Source: a virus. Taken from it: a stretch of 44,680 nt of DNA. Below are positions 30,308 through 43,447 of the stretch, in pieces (the first letter of the stretch is position 1; the number at the start of each line of letters is the position of its first letter). Position numbers and translations under genes: made by a program. The notes under the pieces are model-generated. The model worked only from the letters and a program-made list of their open reading frames with translations, had not been told where the DNA came from and did not search any database. The stretch lies in the UHGV virus genome UHGV-0024713. One strand, given 5' to 3'.

Positions 30308-31903
30308 ATGGCAGCGGGTACACTATCCGTAACGAATAACAGCAAGGCGGTTGTAGGGGTGGGCACAACGTTTACCTCGTTTAACGCCGGCGACTTCTTA
30401 ACGCTGGTGGTAGGACAAGTCCCCTACACCGTAGCAATCGCGTCCATTGAAAGCGACACCGCGCTTACGCTGGTGTTACCGTTCGACGGCCCATCGGCAA
30501 CCGGCCTTGCGTGGGATGGAGTTAAGCGCGATACCATGTCACTGGCAACGATGGGCGTTACCGTACAGGCGCAGAAAGCACTACGCTTTATGATCGCGGA
30601 CGAAAACAACTGGCGCGCAATCTTCGGCGATGCGGAAGAAATCACGGTGACGCTGCCAAACGGGCAAGTAATGCAAGGCATGTCATGGGGATATCTGTCC
30701 TCCTTGCTCAAGGAAGTAGACCCGATTGAGATGCGCGACCTCGCAGCGCAAGCCGAAGCCTCAAAATCGGCAGCGCAAGGATTTCGTAATGAGGCCGAAG
30801 GCTTCAAGACCGAGACGGCTGGCATTCGCGACGCCACCAATCAGATTAAGGCGGATACGCAGGCGATCCACGACGCCACTAATACCATCAAGACGCAGAC
30901 TGACCAGATTAAGACTGATACGCAGGTCATCAAAGACCAGACGAACCAGATCAAGACCGACACCGGCGTTATGAGGGACGAGGCCAACATCGCGAAGACG
31001 GACGCGCAAGCTGCCAGCGCTGCCGCGCGGGGATTCCGTGACCAGGCCGAGGAGTGGGCGCAAAGCGTTAACGCGGATAACCTGCTAACCAAATCAGGCA
31101 ACCTGGCAGGTCTTGCGGATAAAACTGCGTCGTGGGCAAACCTTATGCCTACCGGCCCGCTTCGCGTTGGGGCAGACCCTATTGCCGATCTTGACGCTAC
31201 GACAAAGCGCTGGGTTGCCCTTAACACCAGAATGGACGAGCACATTGCAGGCCTTAATGTTGACGTGACAAGTACAAATATAAAAGTGTATCCGGGGGAA
31301 TGCTATCTTCCATCTGAAGATAAAATATTGCGCCTGGAGGCGCCGAAGACTATCGCGCACAGTGGCTTAACAGCGGCAACGAAGTATTATATTTACGCAT
31401 ATAATGAAAGCGGATCGTTGGGGATTGAAGTCTCAACAACCGAAAATGTCAAATACGGATATAAAGCCAGCACTAAAAAAGACGACCCAAGTCGACGCTT
31501 CATTGGAATGTTTTACTTCACTGGAGGGTCCGAGGTTGCTATTTGCAAATTAATTGACGGTGAGTGTGTGCATTTATTTCCCTGGGGAAGTATTGGGCGA
31601 GTATTAAACAATGGAAAAGCCACTACTGATGCACCTGTAGATTATGAAAAATTTGTCCCTTCGGCATCCTTTACTAGTGTTAAAGTTGCAGTGACTAACA
31701 CCGCAACTACGATTGTTGCCGCTGATATAGGACCGATTGGGTTTGACTATGTAACTAACGTTCAACCGTATTACTGTAAGTTTTTAATAGACATACTTCC
31801 TAATATTGCTGGTGGCGGCTCTCTTAAGTACAAGTATACTTCCGCCCCACAAGACGCAGGAGGTTTTTTCATAGATGTTGCGGGGTATAAATATGACCGG
31901 TGA
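30308..31903 (+). CDS. Tail fibre protein with repeat-rich shaft and AT-richer C-terminal domain
   Basis: Internal ATG with GAGGA RBS; IKxDTQ-type periodic repeats; 3' third visibly lower GC by eye. Confidence 0.7.
   Translation: MAAGTLSVTNNSKAVVGVGTTFTSFNAGDFLTLVVGQVPYTVAIASIESDTALTLVLPFDGPSATGLAWDGVKRDTMSLATMGVTVQAQKALRFMIADENNWRAIFGDAEEITVTLPNGQVMQGMSWGYLSSLLKEVDPIEMRDLAAQAEASKSAAQGFRNEAEGFKTETAGIRDATNQIKADTQAIHDATNTIKTQTDQIKTDTQVIKDQTNQIKTDTGVMRDEANIAKTDAQAASAAARGFRDQAEEWAQSVNADNLLTKSGNLAGLADKTASWANLMPTGPLRVGADPIADLDATTKRWVALNTRMDEHIAGLNVDVTSTNIKVYPGECYLPSEDKILRLEAPKTIAHSGLTAATKYYIYAYNESGSLGIEVSTTENVKYGYKASTKKDDPSRRFIGMFYFTGGSEVAICKLIDGECVHLFPWGSIGRVLNNGKATTDAPVDYEKFVPSASFTSVKVAVTNTATTIVAADIGPIGFDYVTNVQPYYCKFLIDILPNIAGGGSLKYKYTSAPQDAGGFFIDVAGYKYDR
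30760..31060 (+). repeat. Periodic in-frame repeats in the fibre shaft (ATNQIKADTQAI / TNTIKTQTDQIKTDTQVIKDQTNQIKTDT)
   Basis: Recurring cagattaag / cagatcaag / accgacacc units. Confidence 0.6.
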
Positions 31904-32015
31904 ATATTACGCGATTAAAGAGGATGGTAGTTGGAGAGCGATCGGGGACCCTAGTGAAATCATGGAAGACGAAACGCTATCTACGGTAATGCCCCCGAGC
32001 ACGGATGGCAGCTAA
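31893..32015 (+). CDS. Small acidic ORF (about 40 aa) overlapping the fibre 3' end, speculative
   Basis: ATG 9 nt before the fibre stop; ends just before the terminator. Confidence 0.2.
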   Translation: MTGEYYAIKEDGSWRAIGDPSEIMEDETLSTVMPPSTDGS

Positions 32016-32031
32016 TATAAGAGATAAGAGA

Positions 32032-32054
32032 AGGGCCATACGGCCCTTTTTTTT
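32032..32054. terminator. Bidirectional intrinsic terminator between the tail fibre and the end of the minus-strand operon
   Basis: AGGGCC-atac-GGCCCT followed by T8 overlapping the minus-gene stop. Confidence 0.7.
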
Positions 32055-32628
32055 AGTTTGAGTTTTCCCAGTCCATTTTGCGCCGCACCAGTGGGCTTTC
32101 GTAATATTCCTTTCCTTCCACTTCCACCAAAGGCCAGTCGTTCACAATCACGTACGGTTCTGCGATATCCTCAATCACGCCGTGCGCGCTATGTTGCCCG
32201 AACGACACACCAACCAGGATAACACCGGCAACGCGACGGGTCAGATATTCGCGAGCGCAACGGGCCTCAACCAGTCCGCGACGGATGCCGCTGGTGGCTT
32301 TCACCTCGTAGGTCCAAACGGCATCGATCATATGCTCGCGGTAGTCTGGGCCGGACTTAACCTTGCGTTTACCGACCATGATAATATCGCCGCGGTCAAT
32401 GGTATTGGCGCTAAACAGGCCGGTACGCATGAGTAAGCCTTGCGGTATGCAACTACGCCCGCCCGCCTGCCCCTCAAGGTACATGCCCGCAAACATCTCG
32501 CCCAGCACACCGACAAGACGGCTTTGCTTGCACGCGTCAGACTTTAAACGCCACTGGTCAAACTCGATGCTCGCTATCATTGCCGCCAGGTGGAATTGTT
32601 TACCAGATATTTCATATTCGCCGTACAT
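32053..32628 (-). CDS. Hypothetical protein with PD-(D/E)XK-like signature
   Basis: GPDYREHMIDAVWTYEVK (PD, 14 residues, EVK); last gene of the minus operon. Confidence 0.4.
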   Translation of the reverse strand: MYGEYEISGKQFHLAAMIASIEFDQWRLKSDACKQSRLVGVLGEMFAGMYLEGQAGGRSCIPQGLLMRTGLFSANTIDRGDIIMVGKRKVKSGPDYREHMIDAVWTYEVKATSGIRRGLVEARCAREYLTRRVAGVILVGVSFGQHSAHGVIEDIAEPYVIVNDWPLVEVEGKEYYESPLVRRKMDWENSN

Positions 32629-32670
32629 CGTGTGGCCCTCATTGATGCGGGCCGAAGCCCGCGATTAGAA

Positions 32671-33192
32671 TTATTTCAGTGCGCTACGTACCAGTGTTTT
32701 TTCCATGTTGCGGAAGTCTTCCGGCGTCATGAGGATTTTGGACCCATCTTCACCGGTGAGCACGACCATAGGCTGGACGTCTTGGGCTACAACTCCGAAA
32801 TTGGCGGCTTTAACCATCTTTCCCGCAGATGCCGAAGGATGCCACGCCACAGCGGTGGAGATGGGCCAACCTTTAAGGCTGTCGTATTGCGCTGCCGTTG
32901 TATCGATCTGAATCTCGTCATGCACGGTCATGTAAGACTCGCCCAGCAGGGCGGCATACGCTACCAGGTCGACGATATTGTCTTCCTGGTGCTTACGGTG
33001 CTGGCGCACCAGCTTCAGGCAGATCAAGAAGGTCCAGGCTTCTTGCTCGGTCAGGTCGCGACCGGTAAGCGCGTTAAACACGGCGGCGATTTGTTTAGCG
33101 ATGCGTTCTTCTTTCGCGTTGCCATAGCCGTTTTCTTTTCCGCGCTGTTCCATAGTGGTGGCGGCGTTTTTGCAGTATTCGTATGCTTTCAT
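32671..33192 (-). CDS. Hypothetical protein (173 aa)
   Basis: RBS-preceded ORF; no recognisable motif. Confidence 0.5.
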   Translation of the reverse strand: MKAYEYCKNAATTMEQRGKENGYGNAKEERIAKQIAAVFNALTGRDLTEQEAWTFLICLKLVRQHRKHQEDNIVDLVAYAALLGESYMTVHDEIQIDTTAAQYDSLKGWPISTAVAWHPSASAGKMVKAANFGVVAQDVQPMVVLTGEDGSKILMTPEDFRNMEKTLVRSALK

Positions 33193-33245
33193 TATGTGGT
33201 CCTTTTTATGGGGGGCCGTATTGCCTCCCGACGCGTTAACTATAA

Positions 33246-33267
33246 TGCAACCAACCTATTGGTTGCA
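33246..33267. promoter_or_regulatory. Inverted pair of the motif (TGCAACCAA-cct-ATTGGTTGCA) with adjacent TATAAT
   Basis: Palindromic arrangement between two minus-strand genes; minus strand reads TTGCAA-18-TATAGT. Confidence 0.45.
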
Positions 33268-33726
33268 AGTGAATTTTGCAACGTTTATTGCGTAAATTTT
33301 CGGGACCAAATCGCCGCACGCCCGACGAATTGCCGCGATGTTCTTCTCGCAGTCCTCAATGATGACCAGTTCAGACACGTCTGCATAGCAGACCATTTTG
33401 AACACAGCGCACGCCTTAAACTCTGGCGGCGGGGTGTCGTCCAGCATGTGGCGCATAAACAACCGGCCTGTCGGGAATACTTCCAGTTGCCCGGCGGTAG
33501 TCTCCCAGCATTCTCGCTGCCTGTTTGTCAGATACGCGATCTCGAAGCCTTGCTCTTTGTACATGCGCAACAGCGGCAGCATATCCATGTTCAGGTCTTC
33601 GCGAACGTGCGCTTTGTGCCACTTTGCCCAAAAGGTTGATTTCGTTTTTATTCCCGGCACCAGGTCGGCCCTCGCATCGCTTGAACCATTAATAACGCCA
33701 TCAAGATCACAAATCAGTAGTTTCAT
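33256..33726 (-). CDS. HAD-superfamily phosphatase (nucleotidase or polynucleotide 3'-phosphatase-like)
   Basis: N-terminal DLDGV HAD motif I, later Thr and IIED motifs. Confidence 0.65.
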   Translation of the reverse strand: MKLLICDLDGVINGSSDARADLVPGIKTKSTFWAKWHKAHVREDLNMDMLPLLRMYKEQGFEIAYLTNRQRECWETTAGQLEVFPTGRLFMRHMLDDTPPPEFKACAVFKMVCYADVSELVIIEDCEKNIAAIRRACGDLVPKIYAINVAKFTCNQ

Positions 33727-33947
33727 TTTAAGCTCTCAATAAGGGTATGTCGGGCGCTTCGCGCAGTAAAGGAGTTGCACACGAAATGGCAACGCTGAGT
33801 CATGACAAGCCAACCGGTGAGGTCAAGGCCCATGATGCGTCCGGGATGAGACGCGCGCACCACATGATTGCGCCGCGGGTCAATGCCGTAGTCTTTTTGC
33901 ATTCGGTCTACGACCGCAGGGTCGCGGTCAACGATTAAGATATTCAA
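33723..33947 (-). CDS. Hypothetical protein (74 aa)
   Basis: Coupled ORF between the methyltransferase and phosphatase genes, overlapping both. Confidence 0.35.
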   Translation of the reverse strand: MNILIVDRDPAVVDRMQKDYGIDPRRNHVVRASHPGRIMGLDLTGWLVMTQRCHFVCNSFTARSARHTLIESLK

Positions 33948-34413
33948 GGAGTTCTCCTTCGCTCATTATTTCAATTTGTGCGCTGCCGAGGGGCGGCGCT
34001 TCGTCAAATATTATCAATTGCTGGCACTTGTTGTTACTCGGCCCGACCTTACCGGTGACGGCGTGAATGAATCTCACCCGCCAGTCCAGAAGAATTATCA
34101 GGTTTGCAGTCTTCCTGGCCAACTTCGCCCACTTCGTCGACGTGTCCTGATTCAGTAACATGACAGTCCGGCGACCGTGCGCTGCGCATTCCACCCACGG
34201 CAGCGGGTCGGAATACGGCGGATTACACCACTTCCACCCTTTCAACTCTGCCCAGTCCACATCAAGCGCGCTTCGCTCCGCCGTGAAGTAACGTGGTAGC
34301 AGATGATTGGCGTCGCTCGCCGCCATATCGTAACGGAATCGGAACTTACGGCGCAGCGGTTTAAATAAAGCTGGCGGTGTGCGCCAGCTATCTTTCTGCT
34401 CACTCTTCTGCAT
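33928..34413 (-). CDS. DNA N6-adenine methyltransferase (phage Dam-like)
   Basis: NPPY catalytic tetrapeptide in WKWCNPPYSD; size and layout of small phage adenine methyltransferases. Confidence 0.8.
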   Translation of the reverse strand: MQKSEQKDSWRTPPALFKPLRRKFRFRYDMAASDANHLLPRYFTAERSALDVDWAELKGWKWCNPPYSDPLPWVECAAHGRRTVMLLNQDTSTKWAKLARKTANLIILLDWRVRFIHAVTGKVGPSNNKCQQLIIFDEAPPLGSAQIEIMSEGELLEYLNR

Positions 34414-34855
34414 GGTCTTGATCTATCGCGTACAGGGCAATTTTCTTACCACTGTTTAGAACGCGTTGCAGGCGCTTTGCACCCTCGATGCTAAGCGGTC
34501 GGCAATCGGAGTAGCCACCGTTTGTGCGCCACGCCATAAGCACCAAGTCTTTACGGTCGATCTTAGACTGGCGACCTTTAGGTCGTACGTACTCCTCGGC
34601 GCGTTTGCAATGCTCGCGCAGACCTTCGGCAGTGATGCGGTTTAGCGCCACGCTGGTGGTGTATCCTGTGCGCTGCATAATCCCCATCAGTTCGAAGAGA
34701 AGTCCGAAGCGTTCCGCTAACTCCTGGCGCACTTTCTTCTCTCCTTCATATAGCGCCTGGTTGGTGTCCGCTAGCGCGTTCGCGCGTTCGGCTTGTTCGC
34801 GGGCTTCGAGACACTGCGCGGCCCAGTATGCTTTTTCTTCTTGTAAGATTTTCAT
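34400..34855 (-). CDS. Hypothetical protein (151 aa), coiled-coil N-terminus
   Basis: ORF overlapping the methyltransferase start; no recognisable motif. Confidence 0.5.
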   Translation of the reverse strand: MKILQEEKAYWAAQCLEAREQAERANALADTNQALYEGEKKVRQELAERFGLLFELMGIMQRTGYTTSVALNRITAEGLREHCKRAEEYVRPKGRQSKIDRKDLVLMAWRTNGGYSDCRPLSIEGAKRLQRVLNSGKKIALYAIDQDHAEE

Positions 34856-38113: not shown

Positions 38114-38392
38114 CTACGCGACCAATTCAGCAACCAATAAATCACAGTCGGCTATGCTGTCGATGACGCGAACGTCAGCGCCTCGGCGGGCCATTCGCTC
38201 ATGTTCACGTACCTGGTGCGGCTTCGGTTTTCCTCCTGGGCGCTTCACTTCGACGAACACTATTTTGCCGTTGATGATGATAATCAGGTCGGGCGCACCT
38301 ACGCGCCCCTCCCAGGCCATTTTGCGGCAGAATCCGCCTACCTCTTTCACCCGTCGCATCAGGTGTCTTTGGATCTTGCCCTCGGGTGTCAT
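38114..38392 (-). CDS. VRR-NUC domain nuclease
   Basis: PDLIIIINGKIVFVEVKRPGGKPKPHQ (PD...EVK) and size typical of VRR-NUC; start overlaps the polymerase stop. Confidence 0.7.
   Translation of the reverse strand: MTPEGKIQRHLMRRVKEVGGFCRKMAWEGRVGAPDLIIIINGKIVFVEVKRPGGKPKPHQVREHERMARRGADVRVIDSIADCDLLVAELVA
38118..38138 (-). promoter_or_regulatory. Promoter candidate with motif pair inside the 3' end of the VRR-NUC gene
   Basis: Minus strand ATTGGTTGCTGAATTGGTCGCG then TATAGT; -35 TTGCTG, 17-nt spacer. Confidence 0.4.
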
Positions 38393-40683
38393 TATTTCCT
38401 GTACCTGTACATGATGTCGCCTTCCGCGGCAAGCGGGAAGCCTTTCGCCCAAACCGGCAGGTCGCACATCAGCGCGCACAACTCCTCGGTTGTGTAGTCG
38501 TCAGTGTCCGGAACTTCGGTGATCAGTTCATCGTGTACCGACAGTACGATCTCATAGCCAGCGGCCTCAACACCCGGCATGGACCATGCGAGAATATCGC
38601 GGCACAGCGCCTGCACTATGTTTTCCGTCAGTTTGCCGCCGTAGGTATACTGGAAGCCCCACTGGCGCGTAGTCTGATTCTCGCCCTGGTATTTGATGCG
38701 GGTACTGGTGCGCTTCTTGCCGGTGTCTTCGGCAATCTCGGTCGTGACAGACAGCGCAATGCCTGGATAACTCATAATACGCCCCGACGGCAACTCAATT
38801 TTAAGCCACCACCCCGCTGCGTTCGGGTCGTCGCGCTCCTCGTCGAAGGTTGGGTCATGCTTCGCCTTCGTGCGAACAATCTTGAGCGCTTTCTTGCCAT
38901 CAGGGCGAACGTGCGCGCCAGCCCAGTATGCCTTGCCAGGGTTGCGAATTGCGCATAACACCGCATACTCAAGCTCGGCCCAAAATGCTACGGTCTTCGG
39001 GTGGGCCTCACGCCACATGCGTTTGATCGCGTCGCATGTCAGCCACACGTTTTTAGGCAGTATGTAGGTTGGACGCTCGTCTTTCTTGCCAGGCTTCGGC
39101 GGGCGCTTCGCTTCGTTAATGCGAGCGTACTCATAACCACGCTTCGCCGCCGCCCAAATGTGATCCGGGAATGTGCCCTTCATGACGTCTGCCATCGCGT
39201 ACAGGTCCAGGCCCAGGTTTTTAGCGAACTGCAAGAACGCCGCGACGCCGCCACCGTAGCCCAGGCCAAGCTCGCAAGCCTTCCCGATCTGACGTAAATC
39301 CTTGCGGTTGGCTTTAATGTATTCCGGATCGAGGCCGAACATCTTACCGGCAGTCTCACAATAAATATCGCGACCGGCCCTAAACACCATTAGCGCGGTT
39401 TTCTCGCCAGCGATCCAGGCAAGCCCGCGCCCTTCCACGTTGGAGTAATCCGCTACGACAAACTTCTTACCCTTAGCAGGGATAATGCACCCGCGAACGG
39501 TTGAGGCGGTTAACTTCGATATGTCATACGCCCAGTGCGCGGTGCCGCGTAACAGGGAGTTGATACCGTTGGTGAGCATGTGCGACCGGACCCAAAACGA
39601 GACGTCGCTTTCTCCTTCGCGGCGTTTAATCTTCCCTTCGTGGTCGTCACTATAATCGCCGCGCGCCAGGTTTTGAGGCTGAAAGCCTTTACCAGCCCAG
39701 CGCAGCGTGCGCTTTGCTCCTCCATACTGAAGACAACCACGGCGGCGACCGTCGGCAGACAGACCATTTACGAGCGGATTGTACTTAGTCGATGCCGTTG
39801 ATGACGCACCGAGACGCATCTCAATCAGCGCTTTGCCCTCGTCGGGGAAGTCCGGGTCTTCAAGCAAATCGTTCAGCGTGGATTTCTGCGCGTTATGGAT
39901 CGTGAACGCCGGGGCGATATCACGCAGGATTGGCAGGAAGTCGTTGCCTGTTAGCTTACCGCCGAACCGCTCCCATGCCTCCTCCTTCAATTCTTCCTTA
40001 TGCGCCTGCACCGCCTTGATCGCGGCGTTCGCCAGGTCAACGTCCACATGGAAGCCGCGGTCATTAATCAACTGGTCGATGAGCAGGATTTCGTCTTCTT
40101 TCGGAGAGTTGCCCCAGTCCGGTATGCGCCAGTAGACTTCGCGCATTGCCACAATATCCAGCGCGGCGTAGCGCAGGAATTTGGCCCACTCTTCAGGGTG
40201 TGTCTCGCGCGTGTAACGGCGGATTTTGTAGGTTTTAGGGGTAGGCTTACAGAACCGTTTGATCAGCGCCTTGCCGGCCTTATCCTTTGCGTGTTCCGCG
40301 TCAACGCCCAGTACCTGACACTGCATATCGAGGCTACCCGGCAGCGCGTGGCGGAATGCCATAATCATGGTATCCTCGATCTGGCTTACCGGCAGGTCGA
40401 TGCCCCACTTCTCACGGATAACCAGGCGGTCGAACAGGAGGCCGTTAGCCATCACTATTTTAGCCTTCTTGCGCGATACCCGGCGCAGCGCCTTGCGTAG
40501 TTCGCGCGGCATTGTGGGGGACTCAGTGGCATCCCATGTCTGCACGCGGCCCTCGTCGATGGCGTAGGTGCAAATCATAATCTCGGTTGATGGGTGTTCT
40601 GCGTAGGCGTACGCGCCTACTTTCTTCAGGTCCACACCGCTAAATGTCTCGGTGTCGAGAAACAGGCGTTCGAAGTCTTTCAT
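38392..40683 (-). CDS. Family A DNA polymerase with 3'-5' exonuclease domain
   Basis: Exo I FLDTETFS; motif A DYSNVEGR; motif B RQIGKACELGLGYGGG; motif C VLSVHDEL. Confidence 0.9.
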   Translation of the reverse strand: MKDFERLFLDTETFSGVDLKKVGAYAYAEHPSTEIMICTYAIDEGRVQTWDATESPTMPRELRKALRRVSRKKAKIVMANGLLFDRLVIREKWGIDLPVSQIEDTMIMAFRHALPGSLDMQCQVLGVDAEHAKDKAGKALIKRFCKPTPKTYKIRRYTRETHPEEWAKFLRYAALDIVAMREVYWRIPDWGNSPKEDEILLIDQLINDRGFHVDVDLANAAIKAVQAHKEELKEEAWERFGGKLTGNDFLPILRDIAPAFTIHNAQKSTLNDLLEDPDFPDEGKALIEMRLGASSTASTKYNPLVNGLSADGRRRGCLQYGGAKRTLRWAGKGFQPQNLARGDYSDDHEGKIKRREGESDVSFWVRSHMLTNGINSLLRGTAHWAYDISKLTASTVRGCIIPAKGKKFVVADYSNVEGRGLAWIAGEKTALMVFRAGRDIYCETAGKMFGLDPEYIKANRKDLRQIGKACELGLGYGGGVAAFLQFAKNLGLDLYAMADVMKGTFPDHIWAAAKRGYEYARINEAKRPPKPGKKDERPTYILPKNVWLTCDAIKRMWREAHPKTVAFWAELEYAVLCAIRNPGKAYWAGAHVRPDGKKALKIVRTKAKHDPTFDEERDDPNAAGWWLKIELPSGRIMSYPGIALSVTTEIAEDTGKKRTSTRIKYQGENQTTRQWGFQYTYGGKLTENIVQALCRDILAWSMPGVEAAGYEIVLSVHDELITEVPDTDDYTTEELCALMCDLPVWAKGFPLAAEGDIMYRYRK

Positions 40684-41781: not shown

Positions 41782-42024
41782 TCAAGCATTTTCATTAAAA
41801 AGATTTCGGGTCACGTAGTTGGTGGCGTTCTCGATCCAGCTTAGCGGCGGGCGTTCGATGTTCTTTTCCACCCAGGCGACGGCAACTTCGCTATAGCCGT
41901 CATCCAGCCAGCGGGTCGGATGGCGAATCATCCACGCCACCATTAACACGCCTTGCACGCAATGCAGGATAAAGCCCAGCGCGCCGAGCAAAAACATCAA
42001 TAAGATTGCGAATACTTTATTCAT
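41782..42024 (-). CDS. Small membrane protein (80 aa)
   Basis: N-terminal hydrophobic helix; overlaps the upstream gene stop. Confidence 0.45.
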   Translation of the reverse strand: MNKVFAILLMFLLGALGFILHCVQGVLMVAWMIRHPTRWLDDGYSEVAVAWVEKNIERPPLSWIENATNYVTRNLFNENA

Positions 42025-43447
42025 TGCTTAAGTCCTCGTCAGTAGCTTCCGACCACGCAGGGCGAGGGTCGTCGATTGGTGCTAATACCGGTTTGGCGGG
42101 TGCGCGCGTGATTTTATCACACAGCTTCGCCCACACTTTTGGTTTTTCGTCCTTCAATACCTTCTCTGCATCCGTAGGGCTGAGCAATGTTTCTTTGTAC
42201 ATCACATCGCGCTTGATCCGTGCCTTCGTGAAGATTTCAATCACTTCGCTCTCGTCCGCCCACTTGCGGATTCCTTCCTTACCGGCAACCATCTTGAGGC
42301 CAAGCGATTCGCCATCACCCGCCATTACAGCCTTAAACACCGCGGACTCGATAGCCTTGATGTGCTGGCGCATTGCGTCCAGGCCTTCATAAGCCTTGCG
42401 CAGTTCCGCGGCGGTCATAGCGCCTGGTGTGGCTTCCTTCTTGCCACGCTTCGCACGTCGTGCCGCCTTCCTGGCTTCGCGGGCCATATTGCGGTCATGG
42501 TTGGCGCATTCTTCCTCTGTCGCAATACTCACGTCGTCGCCCAGGTCTTCGTCGGTTGCCGTTGGGGGTGTCATAGTGTCGATTGCGGCCTTAGCGCGGG
42601 CACTACACTGATCCGCAAATCGGCACCACTGGCACGCATCAACGCTGGGACGGAAGTCGGCACGGGTAAGTCCCCTCTTGCCTCGGGAATACGCCTCCAG
42701 TGAGGCAATAGCGCGCTTGGATGCAAACTTCGCGAATATCTCCAGCGCTTCTACCGAAATATCCCACTCCGACGCCCCGCCGCAATACGGCTGGAAGATA
42801 ACCAGGCGAACGGTCGTAATGTCGTACATAGTTTGCAGCTTGCGCAGCAGTCCGAGCGCGTACAACATAAGCTGTTTGTTCTCTTTCGCCTCGACCTTAT
42901 GCCGCCCGGTCTTCAGGTCGCCAACAATCAGCATGTACGTCCCATCGGTCTTTTTCATGACCATGACCATATCGGCAGTACCGAACGTTTTAATCCTGTT
43001 GCCGTCGATCTCGTAGCCTGAGTGAAGGACGCGGGTCAGATCGGCGCGCATCTCAAGCTGGACAAACTCCGCCACTTCGAGGAGCGGTCGCCAGTGGTCG
43101 ATGTACGCGTCGCACTGTTTCACCATGTCGTCGTTGACCAGTACGCCGCCTTTCGGTGCTTTCGGGTGTGCCTTTACCGGCCCCTTTCCTTCGTTCTCGA
43201 CGTAGCACCCTTTATACGTCTTCGCGGTTATCAGCTTCTCACCGGCGATAATGCGGTTTAGCACCACTTCAGATACGGTGTGCATACTCGTACCGTTAAT
43301 CGCGGCTTGCCCGGATTCGTTCGGGATATCTTTTTCCACCACCAGGGCCGCAGGGCAACCCATCCACTTTTTAGCACCGGATGGCCCAAGTAATGAGTGT
43401 TCTGTATTGCTACCGGATTGCGTTTTACGTTTTGGTTTAATCGCCAT
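42017..43447 (-). CDS. PD-(D/E)XK nuclease, Cas4/RecB-like (DUF2800-type by recollection) with C-terminal Cys cluster
   Basis: 476 aa; CQWCRFADQC Cys cluster typical of Fe-S Cas4-like nucleases; position in the replication operon. Confidence 0.6.
   Translation of the reverse strand: MAIKPKRKTQSGSNTEHSLLGPSGAKKWMGCPAALVVEKDIPNESGQAAINGTSMHTVSEVVLNRIIAGEKLITAKTYKGCYVENEGKGPVKAHPKAPKGGVLVNDDMVKQCDAYIDHWRPLLEVAEFVQLEMRADLTRVLHSGYEIDGNRIKTFGTADMVMVMKKTDGTYMLIVGDLKTGRHKVEAKENKQLMLYALGLLRKLQTMYDITTVRLVIFQPYCGGASEWDISVEALEIFAKFASKRAIASLEAYSRGKRGLTRADFRPSVDACQWCRFADQCSARAKAAIDTMTPPTATDEDLGDDVSIATEEECANHDRNMAREARKAARRAKRGKKEATPGAMTAAELRKAYEGLDAMRQHIKAIESAVFKAVMAGDGESLGLKMVAGKEGIRKWADESEVIEIFTKARIKRDVMYKETLLSPTDAEKVLKDEKPKVWAKLCDKITRAPAKPVLAPIDDPRPAWSEATDEDLSNE

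Follow-up and report, generated by a model that had tools for sequence, protein, structure and literature searches.

A narrowly distributed phage protein of predicted PD-(D/E)xK fold and a DUF6378 protein at the end of the Dhillonvirus replication operon

Genes and signals at the operon end

The window, by which we mean the whole 44,680-nucleotide stretch of viral DNA that was analyzed, belongs to Dhillonvirus, the HK578/SECphi18-like siphophages of E. coli. The 1.9 kb around the two genes considered here, termed A and B (Table 1), is matched at 80-95% identity by 157 phage records, nearly all of them E. coli Dhillonvirus and with Maverick, SECphi18, mckay, HK578 and the BASEL Dhillonviruses among them. 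Both genes belong to a leftward operon on the minus strand and lie at its distal end; the operon begins with a DUF2800/PDDEXK_1 exonuclease, an Enc34-type single-stranded-DNA-binding protein, a family A DNA polymerase, a VRR-NUC protein and an SNF2 helicase, continues with a 236-aa methyltransferase-like protein, an HNH-like protein, a 151-aa protein, a Dam methyltransferase and a 74-aa protein, and ends with a HAD phosphatase, gene B and gene A. An earlier note, made from the DNA letters and their translations, had proposed that two open reading frames close a replication operon at this place, and the proposal is borne out: the coordinates, minus-strand orientation and ATG starts of both were confirmed, and a conserved terminator follows gene A and faces a converging tail-fiber gene. 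The name 'DNA ligase' attached to the 151-aa protein finds no support in Pfam or NCBIfam; the protein is far too small for a ligase, and the name is probably a propagated misannotation.

Table 1. Positions of the genes, codons and nucleic acid elements discussed in the text
Feature	Position	Strand	Evidence or label
GC-rich hairpin AAGGGCCGTATGGCCCTT, A-run before and T-rich tail after; bidirectional terminator of gene A and the converging tail-fiber gene	32031..32048	-	scan, conservation
Gene A, 191 aa, 21.5 kDa, ATG start; predicted PD-(D/E)xK-fold nuclease, last gene of the operon	32053..32628	-	phrog_10558
E108-V109-K110 codons, invariant E-x-K within strand 101-112	32299..32307	-	
Peptide GPDYREHMIDAVWTYEVK, gene A residues 93-110, as quoted in the earlier note	32299..32352	-	
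D81 codon (G80-D81 invariant), opening strand 81-87 and proposed as the catalytic Asp	32386..32388	-	
E44 codon; invariant Glu within helix 34-54, which forms alpha-1 of the nuclease core	32497..32499	-	
Perfect GC hairpin GCGGGCTTCGGCCCGC with UUCG loop and no T-run, in the 42-nt spacer between genes B and A; GAGGG and the gene A ATG come next	32647..32662	-	
Gene B, 173 aa, ATG start; DUF6378-domain protein	32671..33192	-	phrog_9871
Conserved C-terminal module of gene B, residues ~141-173, QPMVVLTGEDGSKILMTPEDFRNMEKTLV...	32674..32772	-	alignment
Indel-rich, hypervariable middle of gene B, residues ~93-140	32773..32916	-	alignment; homologue lengths
DUF6378 (PF19905) domain of gene B, residues 17-85, predicted helical (low pLDDT)	32938..33144	-	E 5.5e-10
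Promoter-like TTGCAA-18-TATAGT over a palindrome with a 9-bp stem, where the HAD phosphatase gene ends, just upstream of gene B	33239..33268	-	
74-aa ORF two genes upstream of gene B, Ksap1 orthologue	33723..33947	-	
151-aa protein	34400..34855	-	named 'DNA ligase' by PHROGs (phrog_10530) and by RefSeq for SECphi18
VRR-NUC protein (PF08774)	38114..38479	-	E 6.6e-06
476-aa DUF2800/PDDEXK_1 protein, adjoining the Enc34-type single-stranded-DNA-binding protein	42017..43447	-	

The terminator hairpin lies directly 3' of the gene A stop codon and is conserved in 13 relatives, where the stem variants GGGCC and GGGGCC keep the pairing. A 46-aa ATG open reading frame on the plus strand (31875..32015) overlaps the 3' end of the 540-aa tail-fiber gene and stops just short of this shared terminator, and some records annotate odd products at or beside the 3' end of gene A ('olfactory receptor', 'putative tail tip protein'). 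Between genes B and A, the UUCG hairpin recurs in 15 of 16 relatives in an alignment that did not capture the L020 region, with single-base variants in three and including relatives whose protein A is 57% identical; it may act as an mRNA-stabilizing or processing element, or as an attenuator that sets the level of gene A. The promoter-like site ahead of gene B matches the consensus at 9 of 12 positions and is conserved in sequence among relatives, but comparable sites are about equally frequent in shuffled sequences, making a promoter of their own for genes B and A a weak possibility. The palindrome at this site overlaps the HAD stop codon, and its center is inverted in two relatives (L012 and L019; CCAATAGGTTGG to CCAACCTATTGG) with the pairing kept. 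A second conserved hairpin, at approximately 33211..33229, precedes the ribosome-binding site of gene B.

Gene B had been described as lacking any recognizable motif, which proved wrong, as it matches Pfam DUF6378 at 39.8 bits against a curated gathering cut-off of 27.1. The domain was likewise matched in 27 of 27 gene B homologues tested, and it is widespread in phages, with 315 records from Vibrio, Xanthomonas, Klebsiella, N4-like and other phages. Weaker matches of gene B lead to phrog_474 and phrog_1167, both labeled 'phosphofructokinase', and some annotators give DUF6378 relatives the name 'nucleotide modification associated domain 1'; these labels are annotation only, and a search of the literature on DUF6378 and DUF1599/Nmad1 found nothing functional. 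In gene B, the domain is joined by a hypervariable linker and by a conserved C-terminal module of 30 residues that is specific to Dhillonvirus. The T1-like phages place DUF6378 at the C-terminal end of proteins of 230-300 aa. Homologues of gene B measure 130-199 aa at 64-95% identity and retain both the N-terminal helical domain and the C-terminal module. The middle is an indel hotspot between otherwise near-identical phages, where some variants carry a segment of approximately 25 residues (for example DLSVRLDGEINAYNSAMRVAEG) and others have deletions that take the protein down to 130 aa; recombination cassettes and host-sensor selection are both possibilities for these indels. The predicted structure of gene B was too poor to use (pLDDT 46.6), and a profile search against the PDB came back empty.

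Conservation, predicted fold and invariant residues of gene A

Gene A is a real gene under strong purifying selection, with dN/dS of approximately 0.04. Compared with 13 Dhillonvirus relatives, it shows 96-98% protein identity at 88-93% nucleotide identity and dN/dS values of 0.03-0.05 (median 0.048 over all 105 pairs), and compared with the more distant relative L016 it retains 77% amino-acid and 74% nucleotide identity. This degree of conservation is about that of the neighboring HAD and Dam enzymes and far above that of gene B, the 74-aa protein and the 151-aa protein. A DNA search found gene A in 157 records and tblastn found it in approximately 158, as against 158 records with the DNA polymerase gene, and it is therefore a core gene of Dhillonvirus. 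The phrog_10558 match spans the protein end to end, and the gene product is a 'hypothetical protein' in every record listed.

The family to which gene A belongs is small. A search of 5.8 billion clustered proteins yielded 7 clusters, an exhaustive phmmer search of 1.8 billion cluster representatives just 8 proteins, and a profile search of 5.8 billion proteins just 17 members, with a Pfam domain in 0 of the 17. All matches come from phage-sized contigs, and the distribution comprises Dhillonvirus and part of the T1-like phages of Klebsiella, Enterobacter and Pectobacterium. Gene A itself has no sequence match in Pfam, NCBIfam, PADLOC or the PDB (phmmer), and neither ten family members scanned singly nor the family profile run against the PDB matched a curated PD-(D/E)xK family. 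Gene A can be described as a new, very narrow, phage-only sequence family, of a fold that is predicted below to be a well-known one, in a well-sequenced phage genus.

An alpha-beta-beta-beta-alpha-beta core, whose absence the earlier note had named as grounds against a nuclease, is present in the right order in the AlphaFold2 model of gene A (H34-54, E59-61, E81-87, E101-112, H122-130 and E133-143), where a further strand and helix precede it at the N-terminus and a sub-domain is added at the C-terminus. The best of five models has a pLDDT of 83.2 and a pTM of 0.81 from an alignment of seven sequences, the five ranging in pLDDT from 61 to 83, and residues 71-100, the D81 strand included, are modeled at a pLDDT of 55-66. 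On this model, gene A very probably has the PD-(D/E)xK (restriction-endonuclease-like) fold. Its best structural match is I-Ssp6803I (PDB 2ost), a PD-(D/E)xK homing endonuclease of Synechocystis with 9% sequence identity, from which gene A differs by its additional N-terminal strand and helix and its C-terminal sub-domain. The archaeal Holliday junction resolvase Hjc (PDB 2wcw, 1gef, 1ob8 and 1hh1) and fusellovirus D212 (2w8m) are also structural neighbors. BFVD holds a wider set of same-shaped, uncharacterized phage proteins of 150-200 aa, two of which are named 'restriction endonuclease'. A Foldseek search of the model against the PDB gave nothing significant, the best non-significant match being the nuclease subunit of the SPARDA complex. 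Profile alignment by hhalign was insignificant both with the VRR-NUC protein of the window (probability 0.3%), where the sole aligned piece sets GDIIMV of gene A on PDLIII of VRR-NUC and is suggestive rather than evidence, and with an approximate P. furiosus Hjc sequence as query (probability 0.2%).

The alignment of 18 family members covers three clades, namely Dhillonvirus with its 55-58% identical relatives, a metagenomic T1-like group and the Klebsiella/Enterobacter phages, and extends down to 27% identity. Thirteen positions are invariant across it: A15, E22, R37, G40, E44, G64, R68, G80, D81, E108, K110, A148 and W165. Four of these, E44, D81, E108 and K110, are kept in three further members that were found independently, in phages Sabo, K70PH128C1 and ATCEA85. 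In the canonical PD-(D/E)xK arrangement, a Glu lies in the helix before the sheet, an Asp starts a strand and an E-x-K motif lies within a strand, as in the E-D-ExK of Hjc. In the model, E44, D81, E108 and K110 would occupy these catalytic positions, their spatial clustering being read from the topology alone. D81 stands in the context RGD81IIMV, 27 residues ahead of E108.

This assignment only partly agrees with the motif first proposed for gene A, which paired P94-D95 with the E-x-K. The latter half stands, since E108 and K110 are invariant in 18 of 18 sequences, but P94-D95 is not conserved and the proposed catalytic Asp is D81. P94-D95 already varies among the closest relatives (GNQY, KDYA and GPNY), and it lies in a low-confidence basic loop, GKRKVKSGPDYREH (pLDDT 55-66 over residues 81-100), that is found in Dhillonvirus and the closer relatives only and is deleted in the other clades. 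D102 is likewise lost. As a bare pattern, PD...(D/E)xK is weak: PD-x(5-30)-[DE]-x-K arises in 3% of gene A shuffles and in 5 of the 59 window ORFs of at least 150 aa (stop-to-stop), and D-x(5-30)-[DE]-x-K arises in 57% of the shuffles.

Gene A, DUF6378 and Dam genes across phage lineages

In every lineage of gene A carriers examined, a DUF6378 gene and a Dam methyltransferase gene lie within approximately 2.5 kb of gene A, the DUF6378 match of ATCEA23 being marginal (E 0.006). DUF6378 is often present without gene A, and gene A was never seen without nearby DUF6378 and Dam genes. The Dam-family methyltransferase is encoded two to four genes upstream of gene A, in the same operon and not adjacent to it, in all carriers examined, often with a second methyltransferase. 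Genes for A and DUF6378 occur in two arrangements, in tandem in Dhillonvirus and convergent across the lysis cassette in T1-like phages. Relatives at 55-58% identity keep the order of DUF6378, gene A and a converging tail-fiber gene, with a 4-nt overlap of the first two in one case.

The distant homologues of gene A reside in T1-like phages that have a different replication module (Erf, DUF3799 exonuclease, primase and helicase). In these carriers, Dam is followed by two or three small ORFs, gene A, holin, lysin and spanin, with gene A as the last gene before the holin, and the DUF6378 protein (230-300 aa) ends the converging operon approximately 2 kb away. We saw this block in Klebsiella, Enterobacter, Pectobacterium and metagenomic phages (loci L022-L027, L031, L033 and L034) and not in T1 itself, where the 36 kb examined contain Dam and lack both gene A and DUF6378. 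The recurrent block has one or two DNA methyltransferases, and one of its small ORFs is GcrA- or sigma70_r4-like. A search that started from DUF6378 matches met the same arrangement three times, with the unannotated neighbor in each case a member of the gene A family (Pectobacterium phage Sabo, E 5e-38; Klebsiella phage K70PH128C1, E 7.5e-53; Enterobacter phage ATCEA85, E 4.4e-66).

At the level of gene order, these patterns are suggestive of a functional link between gene A and DUF6378, and the two may share one pathway. The T1-like lineages are mutually related, and the link therefore amounts to effectively two independent observations; the company of gene A, DUF6378 and Dam may instead reflect synteny inherited among related siphophages rather than function. 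A pairing of gene A with gene B as toxin and inhibitor was dropped because the T1-like phages hold the two genes in different, convergent operons. The linkage provides a first genomic point of entry to DUF6378, which is widespread in phages under misleading labels such as 'phosphofructokinase'.

Candidate functions of gene A and its place among described determinants

We consider it reasonably probable that gene A encodes a small metal-dependent DNA endonuclease of PD-(D/E)xK fold with an active site formed by E44, D81 and E108-x-K110, and we infer both its catalysis and its substrate. In the proposed enzyme, E44 would be contributed by helix alpha-1, D81 by the start of the second core strand and E108-x-K110 by the third core strand, and the gene would be transcribed as the last cistron of an early/middle operon for replication and DNA modification. 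The role that we tentatively prefer, at well below even confidence, is that of a structure-selective nuclease that would trim or resolve branched replication or recombination intermediates ahead of packaging; almost equally likely is a restriction-like role or one in the degradation of host DNA. Junction processing is favored by the structural neighbors Hjc and D212, by the status of gene A as a constrained core gene and by its position as the last early gene before late/lysis functions. The same position is held by rusA and rap in lambdoid phages.

Several features temper this preferred junction-processing role. The phage already encodes a VRR-NUC protein, which like gene A is a small phage PD-(D/E)xK nuclease of the replication module and is named 'putative Holliday junction resolvase' in one relative record, along with the RecB-like DUF2800/PDDEXK_1 exonuclease, and with VRR-NUC present the phage may not need gene A as a resolvase; T1, moreover, manages without gene A. 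The two small proteins are unrelated at the sequence level, as the hhalign comparison above indicates. Gene A departs from Hjc in lacking a profile match (Pfam is silent and hhalign with the approximate Hjc sequence was insignificant) and in its spacing, with 27 residues from the Asp to the E-x-K and a basic loop between them. Gene A would be the third PD-(D/E)xK-type nuclease in this 45-kb genome, besides the VRR-NUC and DUF2800/PDDEXK_1 proteins.

The strongest rival, which we rate as rather unlikely, holds that gene A is a restriction-like nuclease that degrades host or competitor DNA or counters defenses by cutting DNA without the phage methylation, so that the methyltransferases encoded upstream would shield the phage DNA and DUF6378 would share the theme of DNA modification. 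The constant Dam-family gene upstream of gene A and its frequent second methyltransferase fit this reading, as do the 'nucleotide modification associated domain 1' label on DUF6378 relatives, the two BFVD relatives with restriction endonuclease names and the many structural neighbors among the restriction enzymes of types II and IV (NhoI, DpnI, MspI, HhaI, PaqCI, SwaI and HinP1I). However, a minimal PD-(D/E)xK core cannot tell substrates apart. Compared with type II/IV enzymes such as the NhoI/BisI family, DpnI, MspI and HhaI, gene A has no DNA-recognition or modification-reader domain, shares no sequence similarity and belongs to a lytic phage rather than to a cellular defense locus. E. coli is itself Dam-positive, and GATC methylation would not separate phage DNA from that of such a host. 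T1, which has Dam but not gene A, also speaks against this rival, as does the lack of PADLOC matches and of any escape or anti-defense phenotype at gene A in the searchable literature.

It is improbable that gene A is not a nuclease at all, either through a false-positive fold call from a shallow alignment or through recruitment of the fold for binding or regulation without catalysis. More speculative still, and a long shot, is a conserved phage module for 'offensive restriction' with three parts, namely gene A, the DUF6378 protein and the Dam-family methyltransferase. If so, the nuclease would destroy DNA without the phage modification, whether of the host, a prophage or a co-infecting phage, or a nucleic-acid component of a defense, the DUF6378 protein would be a regulator or cofactor of the nuclease, and the whole would be a virus-encoded system in tailed coliphages. 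The homing role raised in the earlier note, in which gene A, as a free-standing PD-(D/E)xK endonuclease like its best structural match I-Ssp6803I, would spread by cutting relatives that lack it, is very unlikely because gene A is not a sporadic mobile gene: its position is the same in 157-158 of 158 Dhillonvirus records, among which no presence/absence polymorphism occurs. It also has a dN/dS similar to that of the neighboring enzymes, keeps its synteny at 55-58% identity and occupies the same slot in all T1-like carriers examined.

The nuclease annotation of gene A is useful rather than surprising, and should the enzyme prove to be an ordinary nuclease for junctions or host DNA, better annotation would be all that is gained. 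It does make the gene testable, with a nuclease call, residues to mutate (D81, E108, K110 and E44, not P94-D95) and a constant company of DUF6378 and Dam, in a group of phages (SECphi4, SECphi6, SECphi18 and BASEL Bas14-18) that are workhorses of current phage-defense research. A search of the literature found no published phenotype for gene A, and the SECphi18 protein accessions yielded nothing functional. The Dhillonvirus determinants described so far map outside gene A, namely Ksap1, anti-Tmn ORF35, 'Nmad5', the portal protein, the single-stranded-DNA-binding protein and the DNA polymerase.

Several published findings were considered as leads to genes A and B and then set aside. In Dhillonvirus, the anti-Tmn protein (PMC11846954) is encoded by ORF35, which is absent from PhiSMA8, a phage that has both A and B; Retron-Eco7 is triggered by a flap endonuclease; in SECphi18 it is the portal protein that triggers RAZR; and the Dazbog/HpaII methylation result concerns the Bacillus phage SPR. 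Ksap1 of SECphi18, known as the trigger of the Klebsiella Avs2 defense, KpAvs2 (PMC11564622), is neither gene but the 74-aa ORF two genes upstream of B. SECphi18 gp51, which goes by the RefSeq name 'acid phosphatase', carries exactly the published Ksap1 residues K30, L39, L47, T50 and F60. The orthologue in the window, at 55-90% identity, ranks with the operon's most variable proteins and has V30 and M39 with F60 retained, the first two being SECphi6-type substitutions reported to aid evasion of KpAvs2 (PMC11564622).
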